A stretch of 53,211 bases of DNA from Candidatus Bathyarchaeota archaeon (GTDB taxonomy: Archaea; Thermoproteota; Bathyarchaeia; 40CM-2-53-6): contig CAWHWX010000030.1 of NCBI GenBank assembly GCA_963833125.1, positions 1 through 53,211 on the forward strand, in the 5' to 3' direction. The notes under the pieces are model-generated. The model was given only the letters and a program-made list of their open reading frames with translations. It ran no database searches and was not told the origin of the DNA. Below are positions 26,705 through 45,718 of this stretch, piece after piece; position 1 is the first letter of the stretch; each line of letters opens with the position of its first letter. A program made the translations under genes and the position numbers.

Positions 26705-26706
26705 TT

Positions 26707-27516: not shown

Positions 27517-27578
27517 CAGAGAGGATGAAAGAGAATGTAGGTAGCGGTGCTTTCCGGCGAGTGATGTCTTCGTGTTGC

Positions 27579-28544: not shown

Positions 28545-28614
28545 TCAAACTACCTTTGCCTCTCGTTTACGGCGAGAGGTCTTTAATGGGTTAGCGAGTC
28601 GCTATTCGCAGTTT

Positions 28615-30417
28615 TTATGTGCTCTTGGTTTTTGATTTGCGACGCAGGAAATAAGTTGCGCCGGCCACGGCTGCCACGATAACGACTCCTACGGCGCTGA
28701 GGGTAACATAATCGGGCCCAGCAGCAGCTGCGGATGTTGTGGTCGTTGAGCTCGTGCTCGTGGCGGCCCCTACGGGCTGCAGGTTTACGAAGGCTGTGCC
28801 ATTCATGATTTGGGCGCCGTATTCGATGTAGCCGGTTGGCCAGTTTGTCCAGTATTGGGTGTTGTAGGCCCAGACGGCGTCTGGGTATGCCATGATAATC
28901 GTTGGGAGGTACTGGGCGTTTAGGGCTTGTATGTTGTGTAGGTATTGTTGCTCCATGGTTGGGTCAGCGGTTCTTTGGAAGGCGGTGAAGTTGCTCTGAT
29001 ATTGAGCGTCGATGTTTGGAGGGAATTCCCAGTAGTGATTCGCAGTTGAAGGGAGCCAATATACGTTCCATCCTTGGAGGCTGTCAAGGTATGGGTTGCC
29101 CCACACGGGCGCGTTGGCGGTGAAGAGAATCATTGCGCTTCGTATTCCATTGGCGTTATTTGCATAATTGCCCACGATGCTTGAGGCGGAGGTTGTCTGA
29201 AGGTTGACCTTGAATCCCAAAGCCTGCAAGTTACCTTGAATAACACTCGCACCGACGCTATCGATTGTATTGTCAGTGTCGGTCCACAGGCTCAATGAGA
29301 CTGTTGTTCCGTTCGCGTAATGCAGAAAGCCATCTGACGCCTTTGTAATTCCGATCTGATTTAGCAGCGCCAACGATTTCGTTTGATCAAATGAATACTG
29401 GGCAATGCTTGGGTTATACCAAAACGTTGCAGACGGGGAGACTACTCCCTCCCCTGAGTATCCAGTTAATCCGTAACCGTTTAACGCTTGGTTGACGAAG
29501 GCGTTCTGGTCGATGCCGAAAGCTAGCGCTTGCCTGAAGTTTGTCATATTGTAGGGGTACATGGAATCGTTATACTCCAATGAACTGCCGTAGAGACCTT
29601 TCTCGTCCAGAATGTGCATGTTCGGATTCTGGAGTACGGCCTGTACGTTTGATGGCTCAACCAGAGCCAAATCCGTCGAACCCGACTGTAGGATACCGGT
29701 CGTGAGTGAGAGGGATTCGACGAAGTTGACGTCGATCTCGTTGATGTGAGGTTGGGTCGTGAAGTATGGGTTCCTGAGCATCACCATTTGGGTCTGCCCG
29801 GATTGATAGTTACTGACGTAGAACGGCCCGGATACCACATCTGTTCCGAAGTTGTTTGAGGTGGCGCCCTGACTCTGGATGAATGAGGATGGATAGACGG
29901 GGGTGTACAGGTCCCAGTTGAACTTGTCCGGCCAATGTGCATCGGGCGTATTCAATTCGTAAACCGCTGCGCTACTGTTAAGCGCAGATTGCGACTTCAC
30001 TTCAGGCCCCATGGCGAGGTAGTCGTATGTCGCGTTGAATCCGAATTTCGGCCCGAAAGTATCCAGAATATCCTTCGAGGTTATGTCAGTGCCGTCAGAC
30101 CACTTCAGGCCCGGTTTGATGTTGAACGTCCACTGAGTATAATTGTCGTTATGGGCGATCCAATCTGTTACAGCGAGTGAATTGTCCAGAGTCCCATCGG
30201 GAGCTGCGACGGGGGAGCCGTAGTATTGCATTCCTATGAGTAGACCGCCAGACGTACCGGAGACCAGAGTGTTCGGGTTGATGCTGCTGGGTGCTCGAAT
30301 GAGCGTCAGCCTAAACGTCGTACCACCCTGAGCGCTCGCTCTCGATGCCATGAGAGGAATAATGCTGACGATAATTAGCAAGGCGAAGAATAACGTGATA
30401 CCTTTTCGCTTGAACAA
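28615..30417 (-). CDS. oppA: Family 5 solute-binding protein with S/T linker and C-terminal TM anchor
   Basis: WTFNIKPGLKWSDG, SGPF, RNPY and FRQALAFGID; archaeal-type C-terminal anchor. Confidence 0.9.
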   Translation of the reverse strand: MFKRKGITLFFALLIIVSIIPLMASRASAQGGTTFRLTLIRAPSSINPNTLVSGTSGGLLIGMQYYGSPVAAPDGTLDNSLAVTDWIAHNDNYTQWTFNIKPGLKWSDGTDITSKDILDTFGPKFGFNATYDYLAMGPEVKSQSALNSSAAVYELNTPDAHWPDKFNWDLYTPVYPSSFIQSQGATSNNFGTDVVSGPFYVSNYQSGQTQMVMLRNPYFTTQPHINEIDVNFVESLSLTTGILQSGSTDLALVEPSNVQAVLQNPNMHILDEKGLYGSSLEYNDSMYPYNMTNFRQALAFGIDQNAFVNQALNGYGLTGYSGEGVVSPSATFWYNPSIAQYSFDQTKSLALLNQIGITKASDGFLHYANGTTVSLSLWTDTDNTIDSVGASVIQGNLQALGFKVNLQTTSASSIVGNYANNANGIRSAMILFTANAPVWGNPYLDSLQGWNVYWLPSTANHYWEFPPNIDAQYQSNFTAFQRTADPTMEQQYLHNIQALNAQYLPTIIMAYPDAVWAYNTQYWTNWPTGYIEYGAQIMNGTAFVNLQPVGAATSTSSTTTTSAAAAGPDYVTLSAVGVVIVAAVAGATYFLRRKSKTKST

Positions 30418-30460: not shown

Positions 30461-32039
30461 TTATTCTGGTGGAATTTGCGCCCACACTTTTGTTAGGTCT
30501 ATTCCGTGAGCTTTGTTGTAGAAGTAAGAGGCTGCGAAAATTGCTACGGGTATGAGTACTACGATTACGATGATCACTTGCGCTTGAGAGCTGAATGAGG
30601 CTACTGCTGGGTTCGTCACCGCGTTAAATCCCAAATAGCCAAAGAGGATCAGCGCCTATTACCCCAAGAAGGGATATGATCGGAAATCCGCCTATTCGCG
30701 CTTTCCACGACGCGGCTTCGAAAATGGCTTTCCTGCGGAACGGAAGAATAATCGCGCTAACGGCTGTTAGGAACCAAACGACTGCGAACAGAAAGATCCC
30801 GTTCACTTGAGTCGTGATGAACGAGACGAAGAAGTACAGATACATCGGAACAAGGGTGCAAGCTGCGGCAACGACTATTGCAACATAAGGCGTGTGGAAC
30901 CTGTCGCTCACATTAGCTAGACCGGAGGGTAGCGTTCTGTCGAAAGCCCAAGACATGAAAAGTCGGCTTATGAACACAATCCCTAGCCAGCCCCAACCGA
31001 TGTTTCCGACAAATAAGCCTCCCACGATTATCCAGAGCAGCAAGCTACTTGGGTTGAATAACGTGACGAAGACTGTGGGAACAGTTGATGCGCCCCCGCC
31101 TGCCGTTAACGTCCAGGCTTCAAGGAACGAGATCCCAACCAAGTTGTCAAAAAGGTAGGTAAGACCGAACCAGATCAGGATTGATACGATCTCTGCAAGA
31201 ACCAATCCATATAGAAGAGATCGGCGCGGGTTCTTGATCTCGCTTCCCACCATTTGCATCACAGGGTAGGGTCCGATGCTAACGAAGAGCAGTGGAACCA
31301 CAGCTCCTAGAGCGACGAGCGATGGGCCTGGAGTGTAACCTTTTGCCGCCGCATCGGAGAACACCTTAGCAACGCCGCCGGGGAAATATTGGGCGTAGGC
31401 TGCGCTGAAGTCAGCGGGCGTATGAATTAGGAATACTACGACGGTTAGAAGTAGTATGACTGCTCCGTATGCGAAAAACGCATATACAATTGTCCTGAAA
31501 ACTTTCCCACCCGTTATGATGGCTGCTGTTCCAATGATCAGAATGACCACGCTGATTGCAAAAAGGGTCAGTGGAGAGGAAGTGGTCCATGGGGTAATGA
31601 AGTTGCCCAAGTTTGTAATGTTTGGGTCGTTCAGAACCTGTCCCGCAAACTGCAATTGGGTTCCCGACTCTGCGAACGCCCAGTAGGAGTTGGAACCAGC
31701 GGAGGTTAGAGATGCGATGAAGAATAGGAAGCTTGCCACAAAACCAAGTGGTCCAGCAATTGATCGAGAGATGAAGACGTAGTCTCCTCCCGATCGAGGC
31801 ATAACCACGGTCACCTGCCAATAGAGCAGGACGATCACGATCGCGATGACTGCCCACACTCCCAACGCCGCGTAATAGTTAACGTTCTGATAGTAGTCGG
31901 GCGTGAGCCAGAAGATCCCGGCCCAGCTTGTCAGCCAAGGAAAGTAGATGAGACTCCAAACAAATACGTCAAATGAAGAAAGCTGCCTTACCAATCCGGT
32001 AGCTTCACGAACAAACAGCGTAGGGTGTGCCTTTGCCAA
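30461..32039 (-). CDS. APC family amino acid/amine permease (frameshift about 30650)
   Basis: FVREATGLVR, MPRSGGDY..ISR, EIKNP and FDR.LP; the shifted frame ends GIDLTKVWAQIPPE. Confidence 0.9.
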
Positions 32040-32119
32040 GCCATTAACCTAGACGTTTAGCTGCCGCTGTAACAGATATAAGACCTACCATAACCCTGAA
32101 TCAGACGGGTGGAGTAAGC

Positions 32120-32860
32120 ATGATCTTTGAAGGCATCCCCATCGTGGACGCTCATTGCCACGTTGGCTATTTTGGGGGATGGGCGAATGTAGGAATTACA
32201 GCCGAGGAATTGGTATCGGTAAATAAGAAATGTAATGTGATTCACTCCATAGTTTTCACGTTACCAAACAGCCTTTCGATTGAGGCTTCTGAGAAATACC
32301 CGAAAGATCTTTCCAGCTACGTTTGGCTTAATCCGTTTGACGGAGAGAAGGCCGTAAACGAACTGCGCACATCAGTGAAGGAACACGGTTGCAAAGGTGT
32401 AAAGTTACACCCCTTGTTTCAAGCGTTCATTGCCGACGACCCTATTGTTTACCCGATTATGGATGAAGCTAGGAAGCTCAAAGTGCCTGTGGCAATTCAC
32501 TCAGGCCACCCACCTTTCTCATTGCCCTGGAGCATCGGAGAATTAGCGGAAGTCTACCCGGACGTCACTATTGTGATGCTCCACATGGGACATGGCCACG
32601 GACTGTACATACGAGCCGCAATTCATACCGCCAAGAGATACGCGAACATTGTGTTAGAAACGTCAGGCATGCCAATGCACACCAAAATCAAGGAGGCGAT
32701 GGATACCGTTGGGGATGATAGAGTGATTTACGGATCCGACATGCCCTTTCATCATCCCTCAGTTGAACTGCAGCGGGTCAAGATGGCGGAGTTGAAAGAG
32801 AGTCAGCTGAGAAGGCTACTGCATGATAATGCAGTAGAGAAACTGGGCTTGGCAATCTAA
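32120..32860 (+). CDS. Amidohydrolase_2 family metal-dependent hydrolase
   Basis: DAHCH, GVKLHP, IHSG, HMGH and YGSDMP. Confidence 0.9.
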   Translation: MIFEGIPIVDAHCHVGYFGGWANVGITAEELVSVNKKCNVIHSIVFTLPNSLSIEASEKYPKDLSSYVWLNPFDGEKAVNELRTSVKEHGCKGVKLHPLFQAFIADDPIVYPIMDEARKLKVPVAIHSGHPPFSLPWSIGELAEVYPDVTIVMLHMGHGHGLYIRAAIHTAKRYANIVLETSGMPMHTKIKEAMDTVGDDRVIYGSDMPFHHPSVELQRVKMAELKESQLRRLLHDNAVEKLGLAI

Positions 32861-32914
32861 GGCCCAAAATGTATTCTGCGATGCAGCTCAGCGTTTGGTG
32901 CGGCGACGATTGCT

Positions 32915-34459
32915 CTAATCGAAAACAATCTTCCCGGGATTCATTATATTGTCAGGGTCAAGCGTATGCTTTACTCTTCTCATTAGCGCGAGTAGGTTCG
33001 GGTCGTTGAACTCATAGCGGCAATATTCTTTTTTCAAGAAGCCAATTCCATGGACTGCTGAGACCGTGGCACCTGCTTCGGCGGCGAATTTCAGCATCTC
33101 ATCCGTGGCGGCATTCTTCACTTTCAACCCTGCCTCATCATTGTCGAATGCGTACATCGCCCAAAGTTGGGTTGGAATTAGATTGAATCCGCCCCCATGC
33201 CATTTCATTCCATGCTTGAGTGCAATTGAGCGCCATTCATAGTAGACTGACAGGATCTTGTCGAGCGGTAATGTGACGCTCTCCATTCCGTAGACCTGAT
33301 TATTCGGTAAGTTTGCCGGAAAGGCTTCGTGATGTCTCTCCCAGAAATCTGCGACAGCCTGCTTGCCCGCGTCGACTCCTCCGTTCGACTCACAAACCGC
33401 AAGCGCTCTATCCCTCTGTGCAGCAACCACCTCCTTCACCCCCGCGAAACCAAGTATGAGCATGCCGAAGGAAGTGACCTCCGATTCTGACGCCTCCGGC
33501 GCCACTTTGACGACATCCACGCAATGATGAATGCCAAGGCGCAGCCCTAAGCGTCCAAGCTCAATCGATGCCTTCGACGCCTGCCTAAAATCATCGAAAA
33601 CCAAAATTCGTGTTTCCGTGACTTCTGGCATCGGGAACGTTTTCACGGTTGCCTGAGTAATTATCCCCAGGGCACCTTCAGCCGCGATAAATAGATGGGT
33701 TAGGTTGAAGGTTGATGTGGGTCGGTCTAAAGGACGCCCCGTACCAACAATTGTTCCGTCAGGCAACACCACACGAAGGCAAAGAACTCTCTGCCTCATC
33801 GACCCCAGATTACTGTACCATCCATCCCCGCCTATCTGGTCTGTTGAGATTGAGCCACCAAGCGAAACGACCGGTCCACTTCCAGGATCAAATCCAAGAG
33901 TCAGCCCTTTCTCGTTGAGTTTATCCTCAATTGCCAGAATATTCGTTCCCGCTTCTGCGGTAACATGATAGTTCCGATCATCAATATTCACGATTTTGTT
34001 CATTGCAGTGAGATCGATGATCATGCCTCCCTTCAGCGCCACGGCTCCACCAACGAACCCGGTCCCCGCACCCCTAGGAGTAATCGCTATTTTTTCGCGC
34101 GCCGCCAGCCTCACAAGCCTCGATACTTCGTCCTCCGTACGCGGAAGGACTACGACATCGGGTGGAAATCCGTGTTCAAGGTCAATAAAATCCGAGGAAT
34201 GGTCCTGGAAATAGTATGCACGCTCAGAGTACGTTATCTTCACGTTCTCTGCCCCAACGATCGATTTCACCTCATCTAACCAACCGGCTCCGACGGCAAC
34301 CTCGGCCGCTTTACTTGTTGACACTTGACTTTGGTAGTATTTCACATCACAATCGTGATGCACCAGGCCCTTAGTCGCCGAGTAGTCCGGGCGTTCACTT
34401 TTCTTGATTTCTTTATCGCAATGAGCGCAACGCGACAACTCTCGAGCCTCTCTGTTCAC
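32915..34459 (-). CDS. FAD-binding oxidoreductase (GlcD/VAO family) with an N-terminal Cys/His extension
   Basis: PDVVVLP, PRGAGTG..GG, AEGALGIIT, HGIG..K and LDP.NIMNPGK. Confidence 0.88.
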   Translation of the reverse strand: MNREARELSRCAHCDKEIKKSERPDYSATKGLVHHDCDVKYYQSQVSTSKAAEVAVGAGWLDEVKSIVGAENVKITYSERAYYFQDHSSDFIDLEHGFPPDVVVLPRTEDEVSRLVRLAAREKIAITPRGAGTGFVGGAVALKGGMIIDLTAMNKIVNIDDRNYHVTAEAGTNILAIEDKLNEKGLTLGFDPGSGPVVSLGGSISTDQIGGDGWYSNLGSMRQRVLCLRVVLPDGTIVGTGRPLDRPTSTFNLTHLFIAAEGALGIITQATVKTFPMPEVTETRILVFDDFRQASKASIELGRLGLRLGIHHCVDVVKVAPEASESEVTSFGMLILGFAGVKEVVAAQRDRALAVCESNGGVDAGKQAVADFWERHHEAFPANLPNNQVYGMESVTLPLDKILSVYYEWRSIALKHGMKWHGGGFNLIPTQLWAMYAFDNDEAGLKVKNAATDEMLKFAAEAGATVSAVHGIGFLKKEYCRYEFNDPNLLALMRRVKHTLDPDNIMNPGKIVFD

Positions 34460-34551
34460 GTAGAGCTAGACTTTTCGACCTTAATTCCTTTCGTCAGAGT
34501 ATCAGTCCATTGTAGCATATCGGAAGAAAGGCCATAAGACGCATCTGACCA

Positions 34552-34956
34552 TTGCGAGCGACCGCGATGGTGCGTTGTTCGACGATCATCAGATTTCTGG
34601 TTTGGCTGGTAAATAGGACACCATCTGCAAAGAATCAAGTGGCGAATTGGAACAAGACCATTCAGTTTACGTTAGCCGGGGAAGACCCATTCTACGTGAC
34701 ATTCATTGACAAAGGGATGGGTTATCACACAGGCACAGCAGCAGCTACCGACCTCGAGTTCGTTTCTACGTCGAAGGATTTTTTTGACGTGATAACTGGA
34801 AAAGCAAGGTTCGATCAAGGCTTCTCGAATGGAGCCTACACGATACATGGATCAATTACTGATGCCGTTCGATTAATGGGCGTCGCGGAGCTCACATTTG
34901 AAGCTCATCCCGTGCTCAACAAAATAGTACGGACAGCGTTGGGAATCTCTGGATAA
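34552..34956 (+). CDS. SCP2 sterol/lipid-binding domain protein
   Basis: IQF.L..F.V...DL....F..VITG......F..G...I.G pattern. Confidence 0.6.
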   Translation: MRATAMVRCSTIIRFLVWLVNRTPSAKNQVANWNKTIQFTLAGEDPFYVTFIDKGMGYHTGTAAATDLEFVSTSKDFFDVITGKARFDQGFSNGAYTIHGSITDAVRLMGVAELTFEAHPVLNKIVRTALGISG

Positions 34957-35106
34957 GATTCTTTCTCGATCTGACAAGTCATAAATACGCTGCTCACGAG
35001 CTCATTGGGAGGTTGGTTTTCGATGACCTTCCTTCAAATTTGGGTGAGATAACTGCTCCTTTTTGCTCCCTTCGTAGTTGAACTTCCTCTCAAGGTCCGC
35101 CAAGCC

Positions 35107-36156
35107 ATGGCGAAGCAGGTCATCCATCCTGACCTGGATGAGAAATTCTTTGACCTCTATGACAGCGTAATGCGTAAGACCAGTAAGATTTACGGAACGC
35201 GAAATGACTTATTCGTTATTCCGGGAGAAGGAATGGTCGCACTTGACGCAGCAGTCGCCAACCTAGTCGAGAAGGGAGACCGAGTTCTTTCGATCTCTTC
35301 GGGATTCTATGGCGATGGACTAAGAGAATTTGCGATGAACTATGGGGGCGACGCGACTCTATTGCGCAGCGACGATGGCGATGTTGTCGAGCCAGCCGAG
35401 ATCGAGAGACAACTCGAAAAGGATCCCCAGATCAAGGTTGCAACCTTTGTTCATGTCGAGACACCTTGCGGAACACTCGGCCCATTGCCCGAGGTTGGTA
35501 AGATTTGTGATGACCATGGCGTGATCTTGATTGCCGACACCATAACATCCGTGGGTGGCGTCCCAGTGAACGCAGATCGGAACCACGTCGACGTTGTCCT
35601 TGGGGCCAGCCAAAAGTGCTTCAGTGCGCCACCCGGCCTAGCAATGATTTCGGTCAGCCCGAGGGCATGGGAGAAAATTGAGAGAAGAAAAGAGAAAGTC
35701 CCCTCGTTCTATCTCGACCTTCTGCCATGGAAGAATATGTGGCTTAAGAAACGGGAGTTTCCTTACACACAGTCAGTCTCCGACATATTCGCCCTCAACG
35801 CGGCTTTGGATCTCATACTTAAGGAAGGATTAAGCCGGGTATATACGAGGCACAGGAAAATCGCCGATTACGTGCGCGATTTATGCCGGGATTTCGGACT
35901 TGAAATCTTTGCAAAACGCAGAGAAATCTCTTCCAACACTGTGACGGCGGTAAAGGTGCCCGCGGGTATAGATGAGAAACAGTTGAGAAGAGTGATGGCA
36001 AAGCGTCACGGGGTCATAATATCCCACTCCTGGGGGAAGACCGCGGGGAAAGTTGTTCTTCTCGGTCACACCGGCTACAATGCCCAAGAGAAGAAGGCTC
36101 GGATCGCCATGAGTGCACTTTCAAAGTCTTTGAAAAGTCTAGGTTTCAAAAAGTAA
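35107..36156 (+). CDS. Class V aminotransferase, pyridoxamine:pyruvate aminotransferase-like (true start probably about 35040)
   Basis: PGEGMVALDAA, HVETPCG, ASQKCFSAPPG and FPYTQSVS. Confidence 0.85.
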   Translation: MAKQVIHPDLDEKFFDLYDSVMRKTSKIYGTRNDLFVIPGEGMVALDAAVANLVEKGDRVLSISSGFYGDGLREFAMNYGGDATLLRSDDGDVVEPAEIERQLEKDPQIKVATFVHVETPCGTLGPLPEVGKICDDHGVILIADTITSVGGVPVNADRNHVDVVLGASQKCFSAPPGLAMISVSPRAWEKIERRKEKVPSFYLDLLPWKNMWLKKREFPYTQSVSDIFALNAALDLILKEGLSRVYTRHRKIADYVRDLCRDFGLEIFAKRREISSNTVTAVKVPAGIDEKQLRRVMAKRHGVIISHSWGKTAGKVVLLGHTGYNAQEKKARIAMSALSKSLKSLGFKK

Positions 36157-36241
36157 ATCCGCATTGTAAGAGACCTGTTACCACTGCCATAAAATCTCCG
36201 ATTTGCCGTTGGACGACGAAGAGGATCGCGAAATGCCGAAT

Positions 36242-37922
36242 TTAGACGGGCGGCATTTCGGCGAAGCTTAGGGATAGGTCGATACCCTGTTTCTTTCGTA
36301 TGCCCCATGCGACTAAGTAGACTAGGATGCAGGCGAGGAATATTCCGAAGACGAATTCTATCGAACTTCCAGTCGGGACAGAGACGTATCCCAACGCCGG
36401 GCCTGCGACGAATATCCATCCTATGTATAGGTTCACGATTAGGGAGAGAACGCCCATGATCGCGAGAACCGAGACACCTCCAACCTTGTACTTTGCGGCT
36501 GGCGAAGCTTCGAAGATTTGCTTGTTTCGGTAGGGGAACACAATGGCTGTTACGCTGATGAGTACGTATGCGATTTGAGTAGCGAGGCCTGCGGTGGAGA
36601 AGTAGCTTGTTAGCGCGGTGTAGTAGATTATGAGGTAGAGGAATACCTCGCAACCTATTGCGGAAATTACCAATGCTACAAGCGGTGTACGTGTTTTCTG
36701 GGTTACGTAGGCGATCTTTTCCGGCAATACTCTATCCATTGCAGCCGCAAACATGATTCTTGTCGATGCAAAGTAAACAATCAGGATGACTTGGAACAGT
36801 CCGAACGTGAGGCCTACCAAGATTAGCGTCCACACTACCGGGCTACTACTCAGTGATGCCACGAGGGCCGGGTAGTAGGGATTGTAGAAGAACGCGAGGG
36901 GGTTGGTTGAAGGGTCGAAGTTGTAGTATAGCGTATAAAATGATTCCAGAAATTGCAAGCTCACAACAGCTTCAAGCAGATACCACAAGGCGAGAAGGAA
37001 AAGTGCGAACAGAAGGCTTGACCCAACCTGTATCCACACCTGTACCTTGAGGCTCTCTGCGCTCTTTATTTCCGATAGATTGTAGATGCTCCAAAACGCG
37101 TATCCAAATGACACCCAGATTACGCCTAAGAGAGCCAACGTTCCCGGCCAACTGAATGCGGGAGTGGTAAGGTTGGCTGTTTGGATAATGTATTGGTAGT
37201 AACCGCCGGCACTTTGGACCGCGTTCGTTACAGTTTGGTTGCCCTGCGCCTGTACCAATGGCATCGTGAATGAGTTGAAGTTCTGAACAAACGCAGCGTG
37301 GGTCGTAGTCGCTAAAACCAAAAGAATCGTCGCGGCAGAGACAACAGATCCAGCGAACAGGATGTATTGTAGACGGACGTAGAACCGCATACCCAGTGCA
37401 GCAATAACAAGGCCAAGTAGAATGACGACGGTCGTTATGGCAAAGTTCGCAGTATTGTATCCAAAGTTTGCGGCAAGAGTGACCGCTAAGATTCGCGAAG
37501 TAGGGGTTAGACGTTCCGAGGAGGGCAAAGTATGGTTGAAAGCCGACCGAGGCTATGAGCATGCCCAAGAAACTTGCAAAATACCACTGCCAGATTGTCC
37601 ACGCTGAAAAGGTTGATCCGAACCCTATGATTGGATGAAGTACCCGACTCTGCCAGACATAATCTCCTCCTGAACGAGGCATCGCTGATGAGAGCATGGA
37701 TGTCGACAAATAGAACGGAATGGCGATGACCGCCATGAGCAGGATGGCCAAGCCAACGTTTGCGCCCAAGAAACTGGATGAGTAGGCTAGGGAGTAAAGG
37801 GTCACCCATGTGAAGGTGCAGAGGCCGATGGCCATGAAGTTGTAAATGAACGCCTGATGAGGCGCCATCTCACGGACTAACCCGGAGGTCTTTCTAACGA
37901 AAATCTGTTTTGACGATGCCAT
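36242..37922 (-). CDS. APC family permease (frameshift about 37480)
   Basis: FVRKTSGLVR, MPRSGGDYVWQSR, DRVLP and GIDLSLSFAEMPP. Confidence 0.9.
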
Positions 37923-37997
37923 TTGGAAGCACACGCAACGAAATGATGGTAGTGACTCGGTTTGTATTTAAAACTGACCGTTTTTTGGAAACGAAAC

Positions 37998-39008
37998 TCA
38001 TGCGGAGATGAATTGATAGGATTTACAACCCTTCTCATCCAGGTTGACGAGGGCGCCGCGAAGTATTCCTTCTCCGTACTCACTTCCCGGGTTTACGCAG
38101 ACCGTGCGACCGATCTTCGCTACATTCTTCGATTCATGAATATGCCCGTGCAATCCCAACACGGGTTGCGCTTTTTCAATGGCTGCTCGAATTGCGGTAG
38201 AGCCCGCCCCGAAGAAAACCAGTCCGCCCCCGTCCATCATTGGCTTTGGAGGGAAAACGGAAGCGTCCAATTTCACACATGTGTCCAAACCGGAGTCGAC
38301 GGGTGGGCAATGGAAGTTGAAGACTGAGTTGGCTGGGTCGGTGAGCATCGAAATCTTCTTCTCAACTCTTTTCGCGATTTCCTCTTCAGTCAAGTCTCTA
38401 GGGCAATTCCATGGTGTGATGTTCGCAAACCCTGCGGAAATCATCTCGTGTCTAGGATCAAGCATGACAACCTTGTCCTCGGGCTGAACGATCTTCTTAC
38501 TCTTCCCCAGTTCTTCATCGACGAACATTTCGTCATCATTGCCCGTATTGACGTAGACGGGGCAGGTCGTGTTCGAATCAGCGTACTCAACCCATTCCCT
38601 GAGTCTCGTTCGGGTAATCTCCTCAAATATTCTATCGGATTCTTGCTTGTTCTGAGCAAGATTTTCCACCTCGCTTTTTGAAGCCACGTAGAGGTAAGAA
38701 CCGGTTCTTCGCACAACTTCCTCGAACCGCGCCAACTCCTCCTTGCTCTTCATGTCGTGCATCTGTTTTTGAAATTCCGCGTGGTATGATCCATCAGGGT
38801 AAGCGATAACCGTAACGACAGCCTTGCCGGTAAGATCTCCTCCCATCACAATCACGTTCGCCTTGTAGAACTTCCCTCCTTGAATGAACTTCTTCCAGAC
38901 GCTGTCGCTGCCATGGACATCGGAGGCGAAGAGAATGCGGGTGAAAGCCAAACTAGACACTGCCACACATCGATTCTTTCGGCCGAATATAATTCTTAGA
39001 ACTATCAT
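37998..39008 (-). CDS. Metallophosphoesterase (Icc-like, calcineurin superfamily)
   Basis: SDVHGS, GGDLTGK, GNDD, HCPP, HGHIHE and NPGS. Confidence 0.9.
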   Translation of the reverse strand: MIVLRIIFGRKNRCVAVSSLAFTRILFASDVHGSDSVWKKFIQGGKFYKANVIVMGGDLTGKAVVTVIAYPDGSYHAEFQKQMHDMKSKEELARFEEVVRRTGSYLYVASKSEVENLAQNKQESDRIFEEITRTRLREWVEYADSNTTCPVYVNTGNDDEMFVDEELGKSKKIVQPEDKVVMLDPRHEMISAGFANITPWNCPRDLTEEEIAKRVEKKISMLTDPANSVFNFHCPPVDSGLDTCVKLDASVFPPKPMMDGGGLVFFGAGSTAIRAAIEKAQPVLGLHGHIHESKNVAKIGRTVCVNPGSEYGEGILRGALVNLDEKGCKSYQFISA

Positions 39009-39015
39009 TTAATAA
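39008..39015 (+). promoter_or_regulatory. TATA box in the divergent promoter region
   Basis: TTTAATAA 28 bp before TTG 39036. Confidence 0.5.
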
Positions 39016-39035
39016 GCAATTTAGCGCCATCTTCC

Positions 39036-40202
39036 TTGTCAGGCGTAGTTCCATTGTGGAACAAAGCTAGAGATCCGATCCGACTTCTAATGACTCCCGG
39101 CCCCGTCGAAGTATCTCCCCGCGTACTATCAGCCTTAGCAAGGCCCCAGATTTACCACTACTACAAGGGTTTCGTCGATTTCTTCGCTGAAACGACTGAG
39201 AAGATCAGGCAGATCTATCAAACGAAAAATGATGTGCTCATAATGCAAGGAGAAGGCGTGCTCGGCCTCGAGGCTGCAGTGGTCAACACCGTGAACCCTG
39301 GAGACAAGGTGTTAGTGCTGGATAATGGCCCATTCGGAAAATGGTTTGGACTCTACGTCGAAAATGCGGGCGGCAAGCCCGTCTATCTCACGTCCCCCAA
39401 CAACGAGGCGTTCCACCCCGAGAAGCTCAAGGAGAAACTTGACGTCGAGAAGGACATCAAGGCTATGACCGTGGTCCATTGTGAAACTCCCGCAGGGATT
39501 CTGAACCCTGTACAGGACCTTTGTCCGATCGCGAAGAGAAAGGGAATTCTAACGATCGTCGATGCCGTCGCATCGCTCGGCGGTGTCAATGTGCAGCCGG
39601 ACCAATGGGGAATTGACCTTTGCTGCAGCGCTTCCCAGAAGGCGATCTCGTCGTCACCGGGATTGACAATGCTGTCCGTTAGCAAGGACGCTTGGCAGGC
39701 CATCGATGGAAAGACCAAGCCCGTCAAGAATTCGTACCTCAGCATATCTGATTATCGCGATACTTGGTTGAAGGAGAGACGGTTTCCTTTCACACCTATG
39801 GTTTCAGAGGTATACGCCCTCAACGAGGCCGCTGACGAAGTCCTGGAGGAGGGCCTGCAGAATTGCTTCCAGCGACACCACACAGTTGCGAATGCGTGCA
39901 GAGATGGGGCGGAGAAGGCTGGGTTCAAGTTGTGGGCCAAGGGACGAGCGGACGCATCGGATACCGTTACGGCACTACAGATACCCACAGGCGTCACCGA
40001 TGCTGCAATCGTCAAGCACATGGTCGAGAAATATGGGATTCTGATTGGTGGAGGTTACAAGGAAACAAAGGGCGAACTCCTGCGAATCGGCCACATGGGA
40101 TACCAAGCAACCCTCACGAACATTATCACGACAGTCGCGGCACTAGAAGGAACTTTGGCAGACCTCAGAAAAGAGAAGCTGATAACGGTCCCCGCCAAGT
40201 AA
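39036..40202 (+). CDS. Class V aminotransferase, pyridoxamine:pyruvate aminotransferase-like
   Basis: MTPGPV, QGEGVLGLEAA, HCETPAG, DAVAS, SQK, FPFTPMVSE and RIGHMG. Confidence 0.88.
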   Translation: MSGVVPLWNKARDPIRLLMTPGPVEVSPRVLSALARPQIYHYYKGFVDFFAETTEKIRQIYQTKNDVLIMQGEGVLGLEAAVVNTVNPGDKVLVLDNGPFGKWFGLYVENAGGKPVYLTSPNNEAFHPEKLKEKLDVEKDIKAMTVVHCETPAGILNPVQDLCPIAKRKGILTIVDAVASLGGVNVQPDQWGIDLCCSASQKAISSSPGLTMLSVSKDAWQAIDGKTKPVKNSYLSISDYRDTWLKERRFPFTPMVSEVYALNEAADEVLEEGLQNCFQRHHTVANACRDGAEKAGFKLWAKGRADASDTVTALQIPTGVTDAAIVKHMVEKYGILIGGGYKETKGELLRIGHMGYQATLTNIITTVAALEGTLADLRKEKLITVPAK

Positions 40203-40318: not shown

Positions 40319-41326
40319 ATGGCTTTGAAAGTGGGAGTCAGATTGCCGAATTCCGGCCCGCTGGCTCAGGCAGAATCGATCCTGCACAGTGCTGAGCTTG
40401 CCGAGAAACTCAACTATGACTCCGTGTGGGTTCACGACCACATAGTCTGGGGGACGGAACAACACAGGGGTCACCTGTCATCTGGCTCAGCTGAAGCGTT
40501 AGGCCCGTCGCAATTGCCAAACTTCTATGAATCGCTTACCACGTTATCCACAATCGCAGGAAGAACTGATCGAGTAAAGCTTGGAGTAGCAGTAGTCATT
40601 CTTCCACTACGCAATCCAGTGGTCTTCGCGAAACAAACGTCGGTCATAGACGTGCTCTCTGGCGGGAGACTAATCGTAGGGGTTGCACCCGGCGCGCCGA
40701 AAATTACTGAGAAAGAGTTCGAGACAGTCGGGGTTGACTACCATAAGCGTGGAAAAATCACAGACGATTACATTAGAGCTGTGAAGAAACTCTGGACTGA
40801 ACCGCTAGCGACGCACGATGGCAAATTCGTTTCATTCAGGGACGTACAAATGTTTCCGAAACCCTTCCAGAAACCACATCCACCCCTCCTGATTGCCGGA
40901 GGAGAACGAGGACTGAGCGAGATCGCGATAAAGCGAGTGGCGGAGCTCGGTAATGGATGGATCCCTGCATATCTGACCGAGAGCGAGCTGGAGCAAGGGA
41001 CAATACAACTTGAGCTAAGGATGAAGGAGGTTGGAAGGGGGGGTGAGGAGTTGATGGTTGGACTTGAAATGTTTACGGGCATCGGCCAGTCAGAAGACGC
41101 AGCCGAGAAAACCTACTCAGCCACGCTCATGAAGAACTTCGTTTCTGTGGAAGAAGGCATGAAGCGAAGCCTCGTAGGTTCGTCGAGCATTATTGCAAAA
41201 AGACTTGAGGCGTACGAGAGAGTTGGACTGGATTTTGTTGAATTGAAGTTCATGTACTCGACCATTCAACAGTTCCACGATCTGATGACAAAATTTGGAG
41301 AGGACATACTTCCGTCATTCAAATAA
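40319..41326 (+). CDS. LLM-class (luciferase-like) flavin/F420-dependent oxidoreductase
   Basis: AE...YDSVWVHDH, RNPV..AK....D.LSGGR, PKP.QKPHPP and GNGW.P. Confidence 0.9.
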   Translation: MALKVGVRLPNSGPLAQAESILHSAELAEKLNYDSVWVHDHIVWGTEQHRGHLSSGSAEALGPSQLPNFYESLTTLSTIAGRTDRVKLGVAVVILPLRNPVVFAKQTSVIDVLSGGRLIVGVAPGAPKITEKEFETVGVDYHKRGKITDDYIRAVKKLWTEPLATHDGKFVSFRDVQMFPKPFQKPHPPLLIAGGERGLSEIAIKRVAELGNGWIPAYLTESELEQGTIQLELRMKEVGRGGEELMVGLEMFTGIGQSEDAAEKTYSATLMKNFVSVEEGMKRSLVGSSSIIAKRLEAYERVGLDFVELKFMYSTIQQFHDLMTKFGEDILPSFK

Positions 41327-41489
41327 TGCAACTTGGCAAGAAACCGCCCCCCCCACACAGAGTCTTGAACCGACTTCGATTCTTTTAGCGGCCAAGAGTT
41401 CAAGAGATTGATGTCCTAATTCGATTTCGAGAATGTCGTAGGAGTTCGAATTACCCGTGGTAACAGACGGTAATAAAATAAGCAATTGA

Positions 41490-41540
41490 GGTAACGTCAA
41501 CTTGTCGTTTGGTTCGATGAGCTGTAACAAACCGTTTGGT
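41490..41540 (+). repeat. Left terminal inverted repeat with two CGTTTGGT sub-repeats
   Basis: GGTAACGTCAACTTGTCGTTTGGTTCGATGAGCTGTAACAAACCGTTTGGT. Confidence 0.8.
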
Positions 41541-41541
41541 G

Positions 41542-41865
41542 CTATGGGTCGCTTAGTCGCAAGTACTGCTTCTCTAGATCAGGCAGTACTTTCTCCGTCA
41601 AGTCGCGAATCATTATTGTAAGCTCCCCTATCGTTGTCGTTATTTCAATCGGGTTCGAGCCTTTTCCGTCCGTTATGGAGAGAGGTATTCCTGTCGGTAA
41701 GTTAGCCCTCCACATCGTGATAAGTTCGTTCTTCTCGTGAATTCGAGAATACAAGCCTTTCAGGGCATTTTGCAAGCTTTCATCATCAAGTTCACTTAAT
41801 GTAAAGCATCTTGGGAACTTTGGTTCCATCCTAACGGTGCGATAGTAAAACCTCATGGTGCACAA
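41542..41865 (-). CDS. Hypothetical cargo protein
   Basis: 107-aa ORF whose stop abuts the left TIR. Confidence 0.6.
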   Translation of the reverse strand: MCTMRFYYRTVRMEPKFPRCFTLSELDDESLQNALKGLYSRIHEKNELITMWRANLPTGIPLSITDGKGSNPIEITTTIGELTIMIRDLTEKVLPDLEKQYLRLSDP

Positions 41866-41985
41866 ATCAAAGCTACAGGAAACCTAGTTGAATGCGATAA
41901 CTGTAGAGCTTGGGCCAAAGTCAACCTCTAGCAGTATCTTTCTCTACGCAAGCACCTAAATTGGACAGAGCCAAGTTTAGACCTC

Positions 41986-42657
41986 ATGACTGCCCGCGAA
42001 AAACTGGATGAAGCTAAGTTCTTTCTTAGTAAGTTGCGTCAGTTTTCCGAATTTGACTCACAAGGTGAAATTCCGCAGGATGACTTCAAGTATTATAGTT
42101 CTGCTTGTGTTTGGGCTCTCTACGGTTCGTATGACCATTTGCTCTACGACTACGCGAGGAAGTTTTGGCCCAAGTTAGGTACGGACGATTTTCTCACCCG
42201 TGACAATTTGAAATTGGTCGCAAAAGCAACAGAAAACAAAGAAGGACAGGAATTTCTAAAGTGGTATGATAAAGTGCGGGGAAGGATTCAGGAAAACAAG
42301 GATGCAAACACGATAATCAAAGTGCGGAAAGTTGAAGCCCACCGCGCACAAACTCAATATTATTTCATCAATGATTTTACGGTAAGTCTGCACGACGCAG
42401 TTACGGCCTCAGGGGCAATTACAATGGGCGCTTACTCCGGCGAACCTTGGATGGCTAAACCAATCGAAATAGGACCAATACCGAATGTGCCCCCCGTAAT
42501 TCCCATTCCATCATCAATGACGACTGTAAAACGAATTGGACACTTCAGCGGCTATCCTGATAAGCCGGTTGATAAGGTGATAGAAGATACTCTAACTCTT
42601 CTTGACCAAATCGTATCTGAAGCAGAAACTAAGTTCGGCACGCCTCAAGCTAATTGA
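41986..42657 (+). CDS. Hypothetical cargo protein, possible HEPN-fold RNase
   Basis: Helical N-terminus KLDEAKFFL...FKYY.SA and an R-x4-H motif (RKVEAH). The stop abuts the right TIR. Confidence 0.65.
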   Translation: MTAREKLDEAKFFLSKLRQFSEFDSQGEIPQDDFKYYSSACVWALYGSYDHLLYDYARKFWPKLGTDDFLTRDNLKLVAKATENKEGQEFLKWYDKVRGRIQENKDANTIIKVRKVEAHRAQTQYYFINDFTVSLHDAVTASGAITMGAYSGEPWMAKPIEIGPIPNVPPVIPIPSSMTTVKRIGHFSGYPDKPVDKVIEDTLTLLDQIVSEAETKFGTPQAN

Positions 42658-42660
42658 TTT

Positions 42661-42711
42661 ACCAAACGAAATGTTACAGCCTTTCATACCAAACGAGGAC
42701 GTTACGTTACC
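42661..42711 (-). repeat. Right terminal inverted repeat with two CGTTTGGT sub-repeats
   Basis: Reverse complement reads GGTAACGTAACGTCCTCGTTTGGTATGAAAGGCTGTAACATTTCGTTTGGT. Confidence 0.8.
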
Positions 42712-42718
42712 CAATTGA

Positions 42719-42777
42719 GGGTAACGTTACCTTCACGGTGAAATCCGATTAGAATTCCAACTGTTACCTTTCGGTGA
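42719..42777 (+). repeat. End of a second, related element with two GTTACCTT..CGGTGA sub-repeats
   Basis: GGGTAACGTTACC start; GTTACCTTCACGGTGA at 42726-42741 and GTTACCTTTCGGTGA at 42763-42777. Confidence 0.65.
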
Positions 42778-42787
42778 TGGACTGGGC

Positions 42788-43588
42788 TTAGTTTCGGGTT
42801 CTGCGTCTAACTAACCCGTACCCGATTACTATGAAGATTGCGAGCACCGTCAAACCGAAGGGATACTCTGGGATTGGGGGGGTCGGTGCGGGGTTGATGG
42901 CCACGGCAGCCTCAGCCCAAGTAGATCCGCCGCTTAACGTCGCGGGAAAAGTGGACGGAGAAGAGACTGGGTCGGAATACTGTGCAGCAGAACGAGTGCC
43001 AATCGTGTTTGTGTTGGGTGAAAGAGTAAACCCACTTCCATGCGTAACAGTCCCCCCAGCATTTTGCCCTATGATTCCAAGGAGAAAAGCTCCAGCCTGG
43101 AAGGAGACGGAGCCTGCGTCAACCGAAGCACTACTACCGGCATCATGTCCTGAACCCGCTACAGTCGTCATTACGCCTGAAACTTCATAGGCGTACACAT
43201 TCGTCTCTAGTGGACTACCGCTTGGGTTTACGTTGACCGTGTCAGCTCCACTCGTCGTAAGAGTCGCGATGAAAATAGTGACACTCTCAGTACCGTCTTC
43301 TGAAAACGCAACTTGAGTGTATGATCCCCCTGGCCCTGAACCCAAAGTATCGTAGACACGGGTAGGAACAGTAGTGACGTCGTTCATGTAGACGCCCACT
43401 ACTACAACATTTCCGCTTGTAACAGACGAACCAAAAATCGCTCCCACCACAGAACAGGCGGGACTACAGCCACCGGTAGTCTGCTGAACTAGGGTTGCTG
43501 CGGCGTGAACAGGTAACGGACTCGCAACAAGTACAAGCATCATCGTAACCCCAACTAACGTTAACCCAAGCGCCTTATGTCCCATCAA
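42788..43588 (-). CDS. Secreted/surface protein with a PEF-CTERM-like (IPEYP) sorting tail
   Basis: Signal peptide, S/T/G-rich beta body, and PIPEYP-TM-RRR C-terminus. Confidence 0.82.
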   Translation of the reverse strand: MMGHKALGLTLVGVTMMLVLVASPLPVHAAATLVQQTTGGCSPACSVVGAIFGSSVTSGNVVVVGVYMNDVTTVPTRVYDTLGSGPGGSYTQVAFSEDGTESVTIFIATLTTSGADTVNVNPSGSPLETNVYAYEVSGVMTTVAGSGHDAGSSASVDAGSVSFQAGAFLLGIIGQNAGGTVTHGSGFTLSPNTNTIGTRSAAQYSDPVSSPSTFPATLSGGSTWAEAAVAINPAPTPPIPEYPFGLTVLAIFIVIGYGLVRRRTRN

Positions 43589-43691
43589 AATCGGCTCCTA
43601 GTGGACGGCGAGTAGGTTCTGACTATATTACCCTTGTTCTGAATCTCGATTCAAAATTTGACGGTACAACAGTGTCCCGCTGACGAAGACT

Positions 43692-43879
43692 CTAACTTGA
43701 GTTGGTTTTGATAACTCCAGCCACAACGTCACTTGCTCTGAATCAGAGTCAACCACTTATTCTCTCCATCAACTTTGATTCACGCAACTTCCGCAGGAGT
43801 CTTTCCTCCAAGGCCATGTGCGGACGGATATAGTTGTGGAAGATTTGCATTCCTGAAAGAATCGGTGTAACGGCTTTGC
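43692..43879 (-). pseudogene. 3' remnant of a DDE-type integrase/transposase
   Basis: TPILSGMQIFHNYIRPHMAL, then in shifted frames KTPAE and IKVDGENKWLTLIQ, the typical C-terminus of archaeal DDE integrase-core (IS6-like) transposases. Truncated at the aor stop codon. Confidence 0.8.
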
Positions 43880-45718
43880 TTAGAGGAGGTTGAGGTAGCT
43901 GAGTTTTTCTTTGGTTGGGACTCCTTGCTCGTCCCATCCTCTCATTTCGTAGTATGGCCCCAGCATTTTACCGACGTCGCATGTTTGTCCTTTTGAGGTT
44001 CCTTCCGGCATCGGTTCTAGGAACCGGTCCGGAATCGTGTCATCCTTTCTCGTGTAACCTTCCCTGAGGTTGAACAATCTCTCAAGGTTCACGATCCGCT
44101 CACCCACCTTAACCATCTCCGCGTAGGTCTGCTTCATGCCCGTAGCATCACGGATACACCGCTCAATAACTGGGGGGCTGAATCCGAAGTCTAAGCAGAA
44201 ATCGCAGAATACAGCAGAATCAATGGGCGCCGCAGTTGAATCCTGGAAATCTATGACCCATTTCACCTTGCTTAGATCCTCCGAGAAACGATCAACTTTC
44301 TCCGGCATCCCGAAGAGTTCCACGGCTATGGTCCAGCCGTCGTTGTGATCGGCGCCGCGAGATGCAGTTGCATAGTTCAATCCAATTCCCTTCGCGCCCC
44401 TCGGGTCGTAGCCTGGCATCTCAAGCCCCTTAACGTGCATCGCGAACTTCCAAGCGTCGCTACCCAATTTCTCTGCGGCAACCTTGACCCCGTCGGCGAG
44501 TGTATTTCCTATTCCCTCCCTTCGCGCGATTTTCTCAACGAGCCATAAGAGAGCTTCATCGTTTCCAAAGTTCAACTTCATACCCTCAGTTTGTTGATCA
44601 GTTATGATGCCCCGCTCGTAACATTCCATGGCGAAGCCCGTGACCACTCCGGTTGAAATGGTGTCCATCCCATACTGGTCACAAAGAAGGTTGGCATGCG
44701 CTATAGTTTCGAAAGAAGGTATGCCGCAGTTTGCTCCTAGCGCGAATATGTTCTCATGTTCCGGCCTGTCGGTTCTGACGCCGGCGTGTGGGCCATCTTT
44801 AATGTCGATCCATTTTGAGCATAGGACTCTGCATCCCCAGCAGTGAACAAAGCCTCGGTTCGGGTAGTGTGCCTTGATGTAAGTGGCGTCTATCTTGTCT
44901 ACTAAATCGAAATATCCGCTCTGGAAGTTTCGGGTGGGCATGAGGCCCATCTCGTTGACGAATGAGACCGACCCAGTAGTCCCATCCTCTCTAAACGCCT
45001 TCACAACCTCATTGTTATCCACGATCTTTCCTATCCAAAGCAATGTCTCCCGCCAATGATCTCTGTCCAGGAATGTCTCCGCCTTTCCGGTGCCTTGAAC
45101 TGCGAAAGCTTTCAGGTTCTTTGACCCCATTACAGCTCCCGGCCCGCATCTGGCTGCAGCCGCGTGTTTGTCGCTCATTATTGCGGCGATTTTGACCAGG
45201 TGCTCGCCTGCAGGGCCGATTGAAGCTACGCGAATCGTGGGTTTCGAACCCAGCTCAGTCATGACTGCTGCTTCAGTCTCATGAGTGGTCTTGCCCCAGA
45301 GGTGGGACGCGTCCTTGATCTCCACTTGACCGTCGTGGAGGTACGCATAGACTTTCTTCTCCGACTTCCCCTGAATTATTACTCCATCATAACCCGCAAA
45401 TTTGATGTTCGGCCCAAGGTGCCCACCACAGAAACCAACCGAGATCGTCCCCGTCGAAGGAGATTTCATTCCAACAGTATATTTTCCAGTCAGTGGGACA
45501 TTAGTGCCCGCGAGAGGGCCAGTCATGAAGATTAACCGGTTATCAGGTCCAAGTGGGTCTGCATGTGGCGGGAGTTCGTCGTACAGAATTTTTGCGATGA
45601 AACCTCTGCCGCCCATCCACGTCTCGGCGAAATCATTGTCAATTACCTTCTCTGACGTCTCCCCGGTGGTGAGGTCGACGCGAAGAAGCTTGCCCACGTA
45701 GCCCTTGTAATCAGTCAA
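43880..45718 (-). CDS. aor: Aldehyde:ferredoxin oxidoreductase (tungstopterin AOR family)
   Basis: LRVDL, GGRG, KSP.TG, IGPAGE, GAVMGSKNLKA, CWGCRVLC, GMDTIS, YDPR and RGADH. Confidence 0.95.
   Translation of the reverse strand: MTDYKGYVGKLLRVDLTTGETSEKVIDNDFAETWMGGRGFIAKILYDELPPHADPLGPDNRLIFMTGPLAGTNVPLTGKYTVGMKSPSTGTISVGFCGGHLGPNIKFAGYDGVIIQGKSEKKVYAYLHDGQVEIKDASHLWGKTTHETEAAVMTELGSKPTIRVASIGPAGEHLVKIAAIMSDKHAAAARCGPGAVMGSKNLKAFAVQGTGKAETFLDRDHWRETLLWIGKIVDNNEVVKAFREDGTTGSVSFVNEMGLMPTRNFQSGYFDLVDKIDATYIKAHYPNRGFVHCWGCRVLCSKWIDIKDGPHAGVRTDRPEHENIFALGANCGIPSFETIAHANLLCDQYGMDTISTGVVTGFAMECYERGIITDQQTEGMKLNFGNDEALLWLVEKIARREGIGNTLADGVKVAAEKLGSDAWKFAMHVKGLEMPGYDPRGAKGIGLNYATASRGADHNDGWTIAVELFGMPEKVDRFSEDLSKVKWVIDFQDSTAAPIDSAVFCDFCLDFGFSPPVIERCIRDATGMKQTYAEMVKVGERIVNLERLFNLREGYTRKDDTIPDRFLEPMPEGTSKGQTCDVGKMLGPYYEMRGWDEQGVPTKEKLSYLNLL

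Follow-up and report, generated by a model that had tools for sequence, protein, structure and literature searches.

The 53,211-nucleotide stretch of DNA analysed here (hereafter the window: GenBank assembly GCA_963833125.1, contig CAWHWX010000030.1, positions 1 to 53,211) comes from an uncultured Candidatus Bathyarchaeota archaeon and carries two genes, AT1 and AT2, for class V aminotransferases in which a glutamate occupies a position that is most often serine or threonine in other members of the family. Judged from their sequences, AT1 and AT2 are two divergent members of a large, unstudied group of such proteins, the Glu clade, which also contains the group of the pyridoxamine-pyruvate aminotransferase (PPAT) of Mesorhizobium loti. 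Because clade members often lie beside genes for importers of the HmpT/PdxU2 type, the most likely activity of AT2, and of AT1 if it is expressed, would be transamination of free pyridoxamine and pyridoxal in the interconversion or salvage of vitamin B6, a reading to which we give an even chance of being correct. The assembly, 87.8% complete, totals 3.07 Mb in 39 contigs, of which the window is contig C30; its two aminotransferase genes are as follows.

35107..36156, plus strand: AT1, a 349-residue Glu-clade class V aminotransferase, counted from the first ATG; key residues Glu41 (GAA at 35227-35229), Asp144, Lys170 (35614-35616), Trp309 (36031-36033, at the position of PPAT Arg336) and Leu318 (36058-36060, at the position of PPAT Arg345)
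39036..40202, plus strand: AT2, an intact 388-residue Glu-clade class V aminotransferase, called from its open reading frame (ORF) and Pfam Aminotran_5; key residues Glu73 (GAA at 39252-39254), Asp176, Lys202 (39639-39641), Phe250 (39783-39785, at the position of Tyr260 in alanine:glyoxylate aminotransferase, AGT), Tyr341 (40056-40058, at the position of PPAT Arg336) and Arg350 (40083-40085, at the position of PPAT Arg345)

The glutamate signature and the clade it marks

Both proteins exceed the gathering cut-off of 21.5 bits for Pfam PF00266 (Aminotran_5), AT2 with 80.1 bits and AT1 with 67.1 bits, and they share 35% identity with one another. The original prediction had noted a G-E-G signature in both enzymes and an FPFTP.VSE motif in the protein that starts at 39036, and inspection of the two ORFs bears these readings out: the glutamate is residue 41 of AT1, within the motif IPGEGMVALDAA, and residue 73 of AT2, within MQGEGVLGLEAA, and AT2 contains FPFTPMVSE, to which FPYTQSVSD corresponds in AT1. 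Alignment with HMMER places both glutamates opposite the glutamate of 'ilhGEPVLGLEAA' in chain 2z9u_A (chain index 67, which is Glu68 provided that the chain lacks Met1), a structure identified in the fold-search output as M. loti PPAT (EC 2.6.1.30), so the proposed correspondence with the PPAT residue holds. The closest named homologues of the window's enzymes are from Candidatus Bathyarchaeia, at 81% identity in one search and 73% in another, and the automatic JGI name 'pyridoxamine--pyruvate transaminase' is attached to 6 of 120 AT2 homologues.

A PPAT-type identity, as had been suggested, stands in part, in that PPAT is the closest characterised relative by three measures. The structure 2z9u is the top solved-structure match of AT2 (237 bits, against 184.8 for the next entry) and of AT1 (227 against 194.9); NF046070, the NCBIfam equivalog model for PPAT, is the top family for both; and the predicted model of AT2 (mean pLDDT 94.9) finds its best fold match in 2z9u_A, with a TM score of 0.92 and 34% identity. 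Lys197 and Asp171 of PPAT, described as the Schiff-base residue and the ring-nitrogen residue (PMC9309667), are retained as Lys202 and Asp176 in AT2 and as Lys170 and Asp144 in AT1, and the likeness to PPAT further takes in Glu68, a hydrophobic residue after G-E-x, the phenylalanine of FPFTP and, in AT2, Arg345. The second-best matches in sequence and fold, human AGT (1h0c) and a Nostoc enzyme (1vjo), both of the AGT/serine:pyruvate type that depends on pyridoxal phosphate (PLP), likewise share the class V fold, the lysine, the aspartate and, with AT2, the C-terminal arginine, but their phosphate pocket differs at three positions. In PPAT, Glu68 reportedly excludes the phosphate, Arg345 binds the substrate carboxylate and Arg336 is a second carboxylate ligand. 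The hosts also differ, an archaeon without recognisable PLP synthesis in the one case and an aerobic B6 degrader in the other.

Glutamate fills the motif column in all 122 rows of the AT2 homologue set and in 115 of the 120 listed AT1 homologues, the other five being fragments without the N-terminal part in which the region lies. Among the best 150 cluster representatives at 50% identity, the same column holds E in 32, S in 89, T in 10, P in 10, A in 5, G in 2, C in 1 and a gap in 1. A FastTree phylogeny of 168 rows (172 candidates, made up of the 150 representatives and 22 homologues, minus 8 dropped for length, plus AT1, AT2 and the genome's two other class V proteins) puts all 53 Glu rows on one side of a single branch with a support of 77. 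An IQ-TREE phylogeny of 89 rows, computed with the motif columns removed, again confines glutamate to one side of one branch, with a support of 86; its rows comprise 52 Glu proteins (P0283 was dropped) and 37 non-Glu proteins, namely the genome's two other class V proteins, the two nearest non-Glu neighbours on the FastTree tree and the rest taken by order of identifier. The placement on a single branch of two trees indicates that one change of state accounts for the glutamate. Subclade A (21 rows, support 98) is formed by the AT2 group of 8 (support 97) and a sister group of 13 (support 99) containing P0274, which serves as a proxy for PPAT proper (465 bits to 2z9u and 578.6 bits to NF046070), and subclade B (31 rows, support 96) unites AT1 with proteins of Clostridia, haloarchaea, Nitrososphaerota and others. 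The expected kinship with PPAT relatives is thus recovered by alignment and tree alike, with AT1 and AT2 both inside the clade that contains the PPAT group.

The phosphate pocket was compared over the same 168 rows, 53 from the clade and 115 others, at the three positions that correspond to Ser81, His83 and Tyr260 of AGT. At the Ser81 position, every one of the 53 clade rows has glutamate, whereas 98 of the 115 others have Ser or Thr (the exceptions being P in 9, A in 5, G in 2 and C in 1). The His83 position is M, I, V, L or A in 51 of 53 clade rows and T, S, R or H in 109 of 115 others, and the Tyr260 position is Phe in 41 of 53 against T, Y, H, S, Q or N in 97 of 115. AT2 reads E, V, F at the three positions and AT1 reads E, M, F, so that neither has a polar PLP pocket. 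All 53 clade rows retain the aspartate and all but one the catalytic lysine (52 of 53), and the carboxylate-binding arginine is present in 47 of the 53 Glu rows versus 115 of 115 non-Glu rows. The picture that these residues suggest is one of a working transaminase core joined to a dismantled phosphate pocket. In two further Glu-clade proteins, P0241 and the product of L025:5477-6553 in the relative genome G011, a histidine replaces the Schiff-base lysine (GASQHCLSAPPG), and these may be pseudo-enzymes or mechanistic variants. The genome studied here holds four class V aminotransferase genes, and the two outside the locus read G-T-G and T-G-T at the glutamate site.

From these features we infer a mode of action that dispenses with a bound cofactor. 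As fold-type-I class V enzymes with the phosphate pocket dismantled, AT1 and AT2 would be unable to hold PLP as a fixed cofactor, and free pyridoxamine or pyridoxal would instead enter the cofactor site as a substrate, as in M. loti PPAT. In AT2, Lys202 would form the imine with pyridoxal and transfer the proton, Asp176 would hold the ring nitrogen and Arg350 would hold the carboxylate of the 2-oxo or amino acid partner, for a net reversible reaction of pyridoxamine and a 2-oxo acid to pyridoxal and an amino acid. Since neither protein has an arginine at the position of PPAT Arg336, a 2-oxo acid other than pyruvate may serve as the partner. The physiological role would be an oxygen-independent interconversion or salvage of imported B6 vitamers, in an organism without a recognisable PLP synthase.

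Importer genes beside clade members and the B6 genes of the lineage

Clade members were sought by scanning one genome per species with two conserved peptides, one of them the Glu motif, taken from a 12-sequence clade alignment (a 43-sequence alignment being too diverse). The scan returned at least 600 stretches and at least 552 confirmed relatives, and neighbourhoods were taken from the best 80 loci in named genomes, which, judging by the record titles, are mostly of Clostridia but also of methanogens, Thermoplasmatota, Hadarchaeota, Nitrososphaerota and Bathyarchaeia. Clustering of the 911 ORFs in these 80 loci singled out a membrane protein of about 180 residues as the one neighbour that recurs, at 23 loci, and a hidden Markov model (HMM) built from the 23 proteins locates it directly adjacent to the clade gene in 25 of the 80, many of which come from related Clostridia. 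This neighbour is an ECF S component of family PF07155. The sole solved relative of the S components is chain S of 4hzu (E 3.5e-14 and 1.7e-19), the HmpT/PdxU2 protein of Lactobacillus brevis, for which pyridoxamine is the reported preferred ligand (PMC4860826); PdxU and PdxU2/HmpT also figure among the few known B6 transporters in a review (PMC9997740). The S components beside clade members share PF07155 with the L. brevis protein, but the similarity is modest, at 56 and 74 bits, and the window itself holds no such gene.

At 21 of the 23 loci, the aminotransferase and S-component genes are on the same strand and either overlap or are separated by gaps of -48 to +120 bp; the S gene stands upstream or downstream of the clade gene, and at two archaeal loci the pair is convergent. 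By subclade, adjacency was counted in 22 of 69 rows of subclade B and 2 of 10 of the AT2 group. With one to three S-component genes per genome, far fewer than one adjacency would be expected by chance in 80 loci. Any other family accounts for at most 6 of 138 immediate neighbours. MocR-type regulators (a GntR domain with an aminotransferase-like domain) lie within 600 bp at three loci, and the 138 neighbours include no pdxK or other B6 gene apart from three Cof-type HAD hydrolases and three to four MocR-type regulators.

The genome studied here has an ECF operon of its own on contig C15 (281-4559, locus L132), composed of a fused A/A' ATPase gene, a gene for a PF07155 S component and a CbiQ/EcfT gene split by a frameshift, and followed by a convergent aldo/keto reductase gene. 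Its PF07155 protein bears only a distant likeness to the S components adjacent to clade members. The pyridoxal reductase PdxI is a member of the aldo/keto reductase family, according to the same review (PMC9997740).

Searches for PdxS found no copy in any of 25 genomes of the family, this one included; outside the family it was detected in 2 of the order's 16 other genomes, as well as in 10 of the 14 controls. PdxJ and PdxH were likewise not found in this genome (87.8% complete). Since PdxS, PdxJ and PdxH were not found, the organism probably depends on imported B6. Among 23 genomes of the genus, just one encodes a full-length protein of the Phos_pyr_kin type (PdxK/ThiD-type), and this count, together with the missing PdxS of the family and the PdxJ and PdxH not found here, makes the B6 supply of the lineage a pathway hole.

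The permease, the phosphoesterase and the start of AT1

Three further features lie between the two aminotransferase genes or at their edge.

35044..35106, plus strand: N-terminal remnant of AT1, in frame with it, recognised from the translation and a DNA alignment with the relative genome G016
36242..37934, minus strand: APC-family permease (APC2), in two overlapping frames; Pfam AA_permease_2
37998..39008, minus strand: calcineurin-like metallophosphoesterase, divergent from AT2; weak Pfam Metallophos_2 match, motifs and fold

The ORFs and domain matches agree with the original prediction that the two aminotransferase genes bracket an APC permease and a metallophosphoesterase. A single surplus base near 37488-37491 breaks the frame of APC2, which is uninterrupted in G016 and in a second relative, G022; the base at 37491 is also missing from a low-depth metagenome contig of a relative about 93% alike. 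Against Pfam PF13520 (AA_permease_2, cut-off 27 bits), the N-terminal part scores 26 bits over profile positions 2-109, and the C-terminal part continues from there over positions 110-406 with 45.6 bits.

The phosphoesterase scores 23.8 bits with Pfam Metallophos_2, below the cut-off of 27, and is assigned to the calcineurin-like proteins by its fold and metal-binding motifs, the invariant columns being D11-x-H13, G38-D39, G137-N-D-D140, H214 and H268-G-H-x-H272. Because relatives align only from about residue 20, its true start is probably downstream of 39008. A search of solved structures by sequence gave nothing meaningful (best E 0.53), and in the protein-cluster Atlas only clusters named 'metallophosphoesterase' were matched. 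The predicted model (pLDDT 91.8) finds its best folds, with a probability of 1.00, in two uncharacterised proteins that share the metal motifs, TT1561 (1uf3, E 7e-11) and aq_1956 (2yvt, E 8.5e-8), but the query-normalised TM score is just 0.56-0.59, and the archaeal protein is longer by about 90 residues, most of them helical.

The original prediction had joined these genes into a unit for the uptake, dephosphorylation and transamination of B6 vitamers, and this proposal fails when the conservation of the pair is considered. Within the class, 53 of 201 genomes encode homologues of the phosphoesterase. In this genome alone there are nine such loci, seven of them with an APC permease gene within 1 kb; those beyond the window are on contigs C1, C14, C16, C23, C24 and C33. 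At 20 loci from 20 other genomes (L112-L131), an APC match lies within 3.5 kb in 19 and within 1 kb in 16, and a class V aminotransferase is beside the phosphoesterase in none. The position of the pair between AT1 and AT2 recurs only in the near-identical G016; in G022 some 7 kb separate it from AT2, and the G011 locus lacks it. This pairing in many copies, in the genome and in the class, without a class V aminotransferase indicates that the APC-phosphoesterase pair is a generic gene module, unrelated to AT1 and AT2 and with no tie to B6. The dephosphorylation step fares no better, as the phosphoesterase resembles only uncharacterised calcineurin-like proteins; the known PLP phosphatases fall in other families, according to the review (PMC9997740).

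At its 5' end, AT1 lacks some 21 N-terminal residues that are present in relatives, the full-length relatives beginning MLLFT(A/P)(S/G)PT. The segment 35044-35106 reads GTG (35044), AGA, TAA (35050-35052) and then LLLFAPFVVELPLKVRQA, whereas the near-identical G016 has GTG AAT TCA in the same place and an open frame from that GTG; the N-terminal stretch of AT1 is FAPFVV, where relatives have FTASPT or TPGPT. From the ATG at 35107 the ORF is unbroken over 349 codons, with 95% identity to G016, whose own copy carries a separate lesion, a one-base insertion further inside the gene. Short DNA contigs from soil and peat metagenomes map to this stretch, but none spans 35041-35181, where the TAA lies, and the sequencing runs listed for it are of DNA only, with none of RNA. 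Leu in place of the carboxylate arginine is common to 10 of the 120 listed AT1 homologues, at 62-95% identity (P0121-P0128, P0130 and P0134), which argues for a conserved subclade trait rather than a random change; the same subclade has FTASPT instead of the N-terminal TPGPT motif. With its normal start lost, AT1 is either a specialised variant or a decaying gene.

AT2 is surrounded in the genus by a variable island (30624-34956 and 40319-45718 of the window, and also loci L024-L026), which contains a second APC permease, an amidohydrolase_2 protein, an FAD-linked oxidase with a Cys-rich N-terminus, an SCP2 protein, a luciferase-like (F420/luciferase-like) oxidoreductase and an aldehyde:ferredoxin oxidoreductase. 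In the relative genomes G011 and G022, the AT2 orthologues have this oxidoreductase gene no more than about 1 kb away. Just upstream of the island, at 24690-30417, are five minus-strand ORFs, the largest of 600 residues with a C-terminal membrane anchor, that on reading look like an oligopeptide-type ABC transporter operon.

Competing explanations and wider significance

A number of observations weigh against a role for AT1 and AT2 in the transamination of free B6 vitamers. The part of the PPAT-type identity that does not stand concerns the equivalog itself: scores of 342.7 (AT2) and 310.8 bits (AT1) against the curated NF046070 cut-off of 600 indicate that the two proteins are to be regarded, by sequence, as PPAT relatives and not PPAT equivalogs. 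The residue at the Arg336 position is Tyr341 in AT2 and Trp309 in AT1 (an arginine fills this column in only 1 of 122 rows of the AT2 homologue set), and AT1 has in addition lost Arg345, to Leu318. In the fold search of AT2, PLP-dependent enzymes are only slightly behind 2z9u, with a TM score of 0.90 against 0.92. A Glu-type gene is the best match in only 7 of 41 related genomes, and of the 20 S-component loci in the window's class only three show the adjacency, all in a single genus and two of them possibly duplicates of loci among the 80. Neither the L029 protein nor the HMM of the 23 S components found an HmpT-like gene of the adjacent type in this genome. A full-length gene of the pyridoxal kinase type was not found here either (PF08543, 22.3 bits, partial and below cut-off), which leaves the step from pyridoxal to PLP unexplained and a gap in the salvage reading. 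Literature searches, of incomplete coverage, found no assay of a clade member outside the PPAT group.

The richness of the window in genes for peptide and amino-acid uptake (the putative oligopeptide-type ABC transporter and two APC permeases), together with the aldehyde:ferredoxin oxidoreductase near AT2 orthologues in G011 and G022, likewise tells against a B6 role and would fit ordinary amino-acid catabolism. AT1 and AT2 would then be PLP-dependent enzymes of the alanine/serine:glyoxylate type within a nutrient-uptake island, the glutamate being tolerated or binding phosphate through water or a metal. Such an assignment accords with the public names of close homologues ('alanine--glyoxylate aminotransferase family protein' or 'aspartate aminotransferase-like enzyme'), with the catalytic lysine and aspartate and the carboxylate arginine of AT2, and with the fact that non-Glu relatives do not invariably have Ser or Thr at the Ser81 position. 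We nonetheless consider it unlikely, since the three phosphate-contacting positions shift jointly across the whole clade, no neighbour but the B6-type importer recurs at the best 80 loci, and a canonical pocket is found in the other two class V proteins that the genome encodes; moreover, the sole assayed member of the clade is PLP-independent (PMC9309667). It is far less probable still that the Glu-clade enzymes act on some other unphosphorylated compound imported by HmpT-type systems, or degrade B6 as in M. loti. The name HmpT originally referred to hydroxymethylpyrimidine, and doubt over the ligand lasted long (PMC4860826); PPAT has been viewed as a part of B6 metabolism with an unclear role (PMC9309667); the window, too, has an FAD-linked oxidase, an amidohydrolase_2 protein and an F420/luciferase-like oxidoreductase. 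On the established mechanism, however, a substrate that reacts without a bound cofactor would itself have to be a pyridoxal-like electron sink. The known route of B6 degradation requires oxygenases, whereas the clade's hosts are, by name, mostly anaerobes. A reading of the neighbouring oxidase, amidohydrolase and oxidoreductase as degradation enzymes was dropped, as none of them recurs next to clade members.

A different possibility, tentative but more credible than either of these, leaves AT2 as a working B6-vitamer aminotransferase and has AT1 and the permease decaying, so that the 'pair' would have no joint function. The TAA two codons past the GTG that opens the frame in G016, the degenerate FAPFVV motif, the different one-base insertion in the same gene of G016 and the extra base of APC2, missing from G016, G022 and one metagenome contig, are all consistent with decay. 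Set against them are the intact 349-codon ORF of AT1, its close identity to G016 and the conservation of the Arg-to-Leu change in a subclade. The G016 region (94-95% identical; L024, G016:C2:32000-48000) is, moreover, frameshifted in four genes, namely the first APC permease (APC1), the FAD oxidase, AT1 and the luciferase-like gene, whereas in the window it is APC2 that carries a frameshift, a pattern that makes assembly indel errors a live alternative to true decay.

Transamination of free pyridoxamine and pyridoxal by AT2, if it is borne out, bears on a family that has drawn little attention. PPAT is currently regarded as a curiosity of a few aerobic B6-degrading bacteria, and literature searches, again of incomplete coverage, found no paper on the Glu clade, on its link to HmpT/PdxU2 or on PPAT-like genes in anaerobes or archaea. 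The accessible part of a 2023 survey of PLP synthesis and salvage makes no mention of PPAT and states there that organisms with the kinase only 'can salvage only PL' (PMC9997740). We tentatively extend the reading to the entire Glu clade, whose members may be phosphate-excluding aminotransferases for free B6 vitamers that, together with HmpT/PdxU2-type importers, would provide an oxygen-independent route from pyridoxamine to pyridoxal without PdxH; paralogues such as AT1 and AT2 may then differ in their oxo-acid partner, and the subclades without the arginine or with His for Lys may be new mechanistic variants. If so, many anaerobes, among them gut Clostridia and sediment archaea, would be able to draw on pyridoxamine with neither oxygen nor PdxH, present predictions of cross-feeding and B6 auxotrophy would have to be revised, and hundreds of genes now named 'alanine--glyoxylate aminotransferase family' would be due a new annotation. 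AT1 and AT2, as two divergent archaeal members with altered substrate sites, would help to define the partner specificity of these enzymes.

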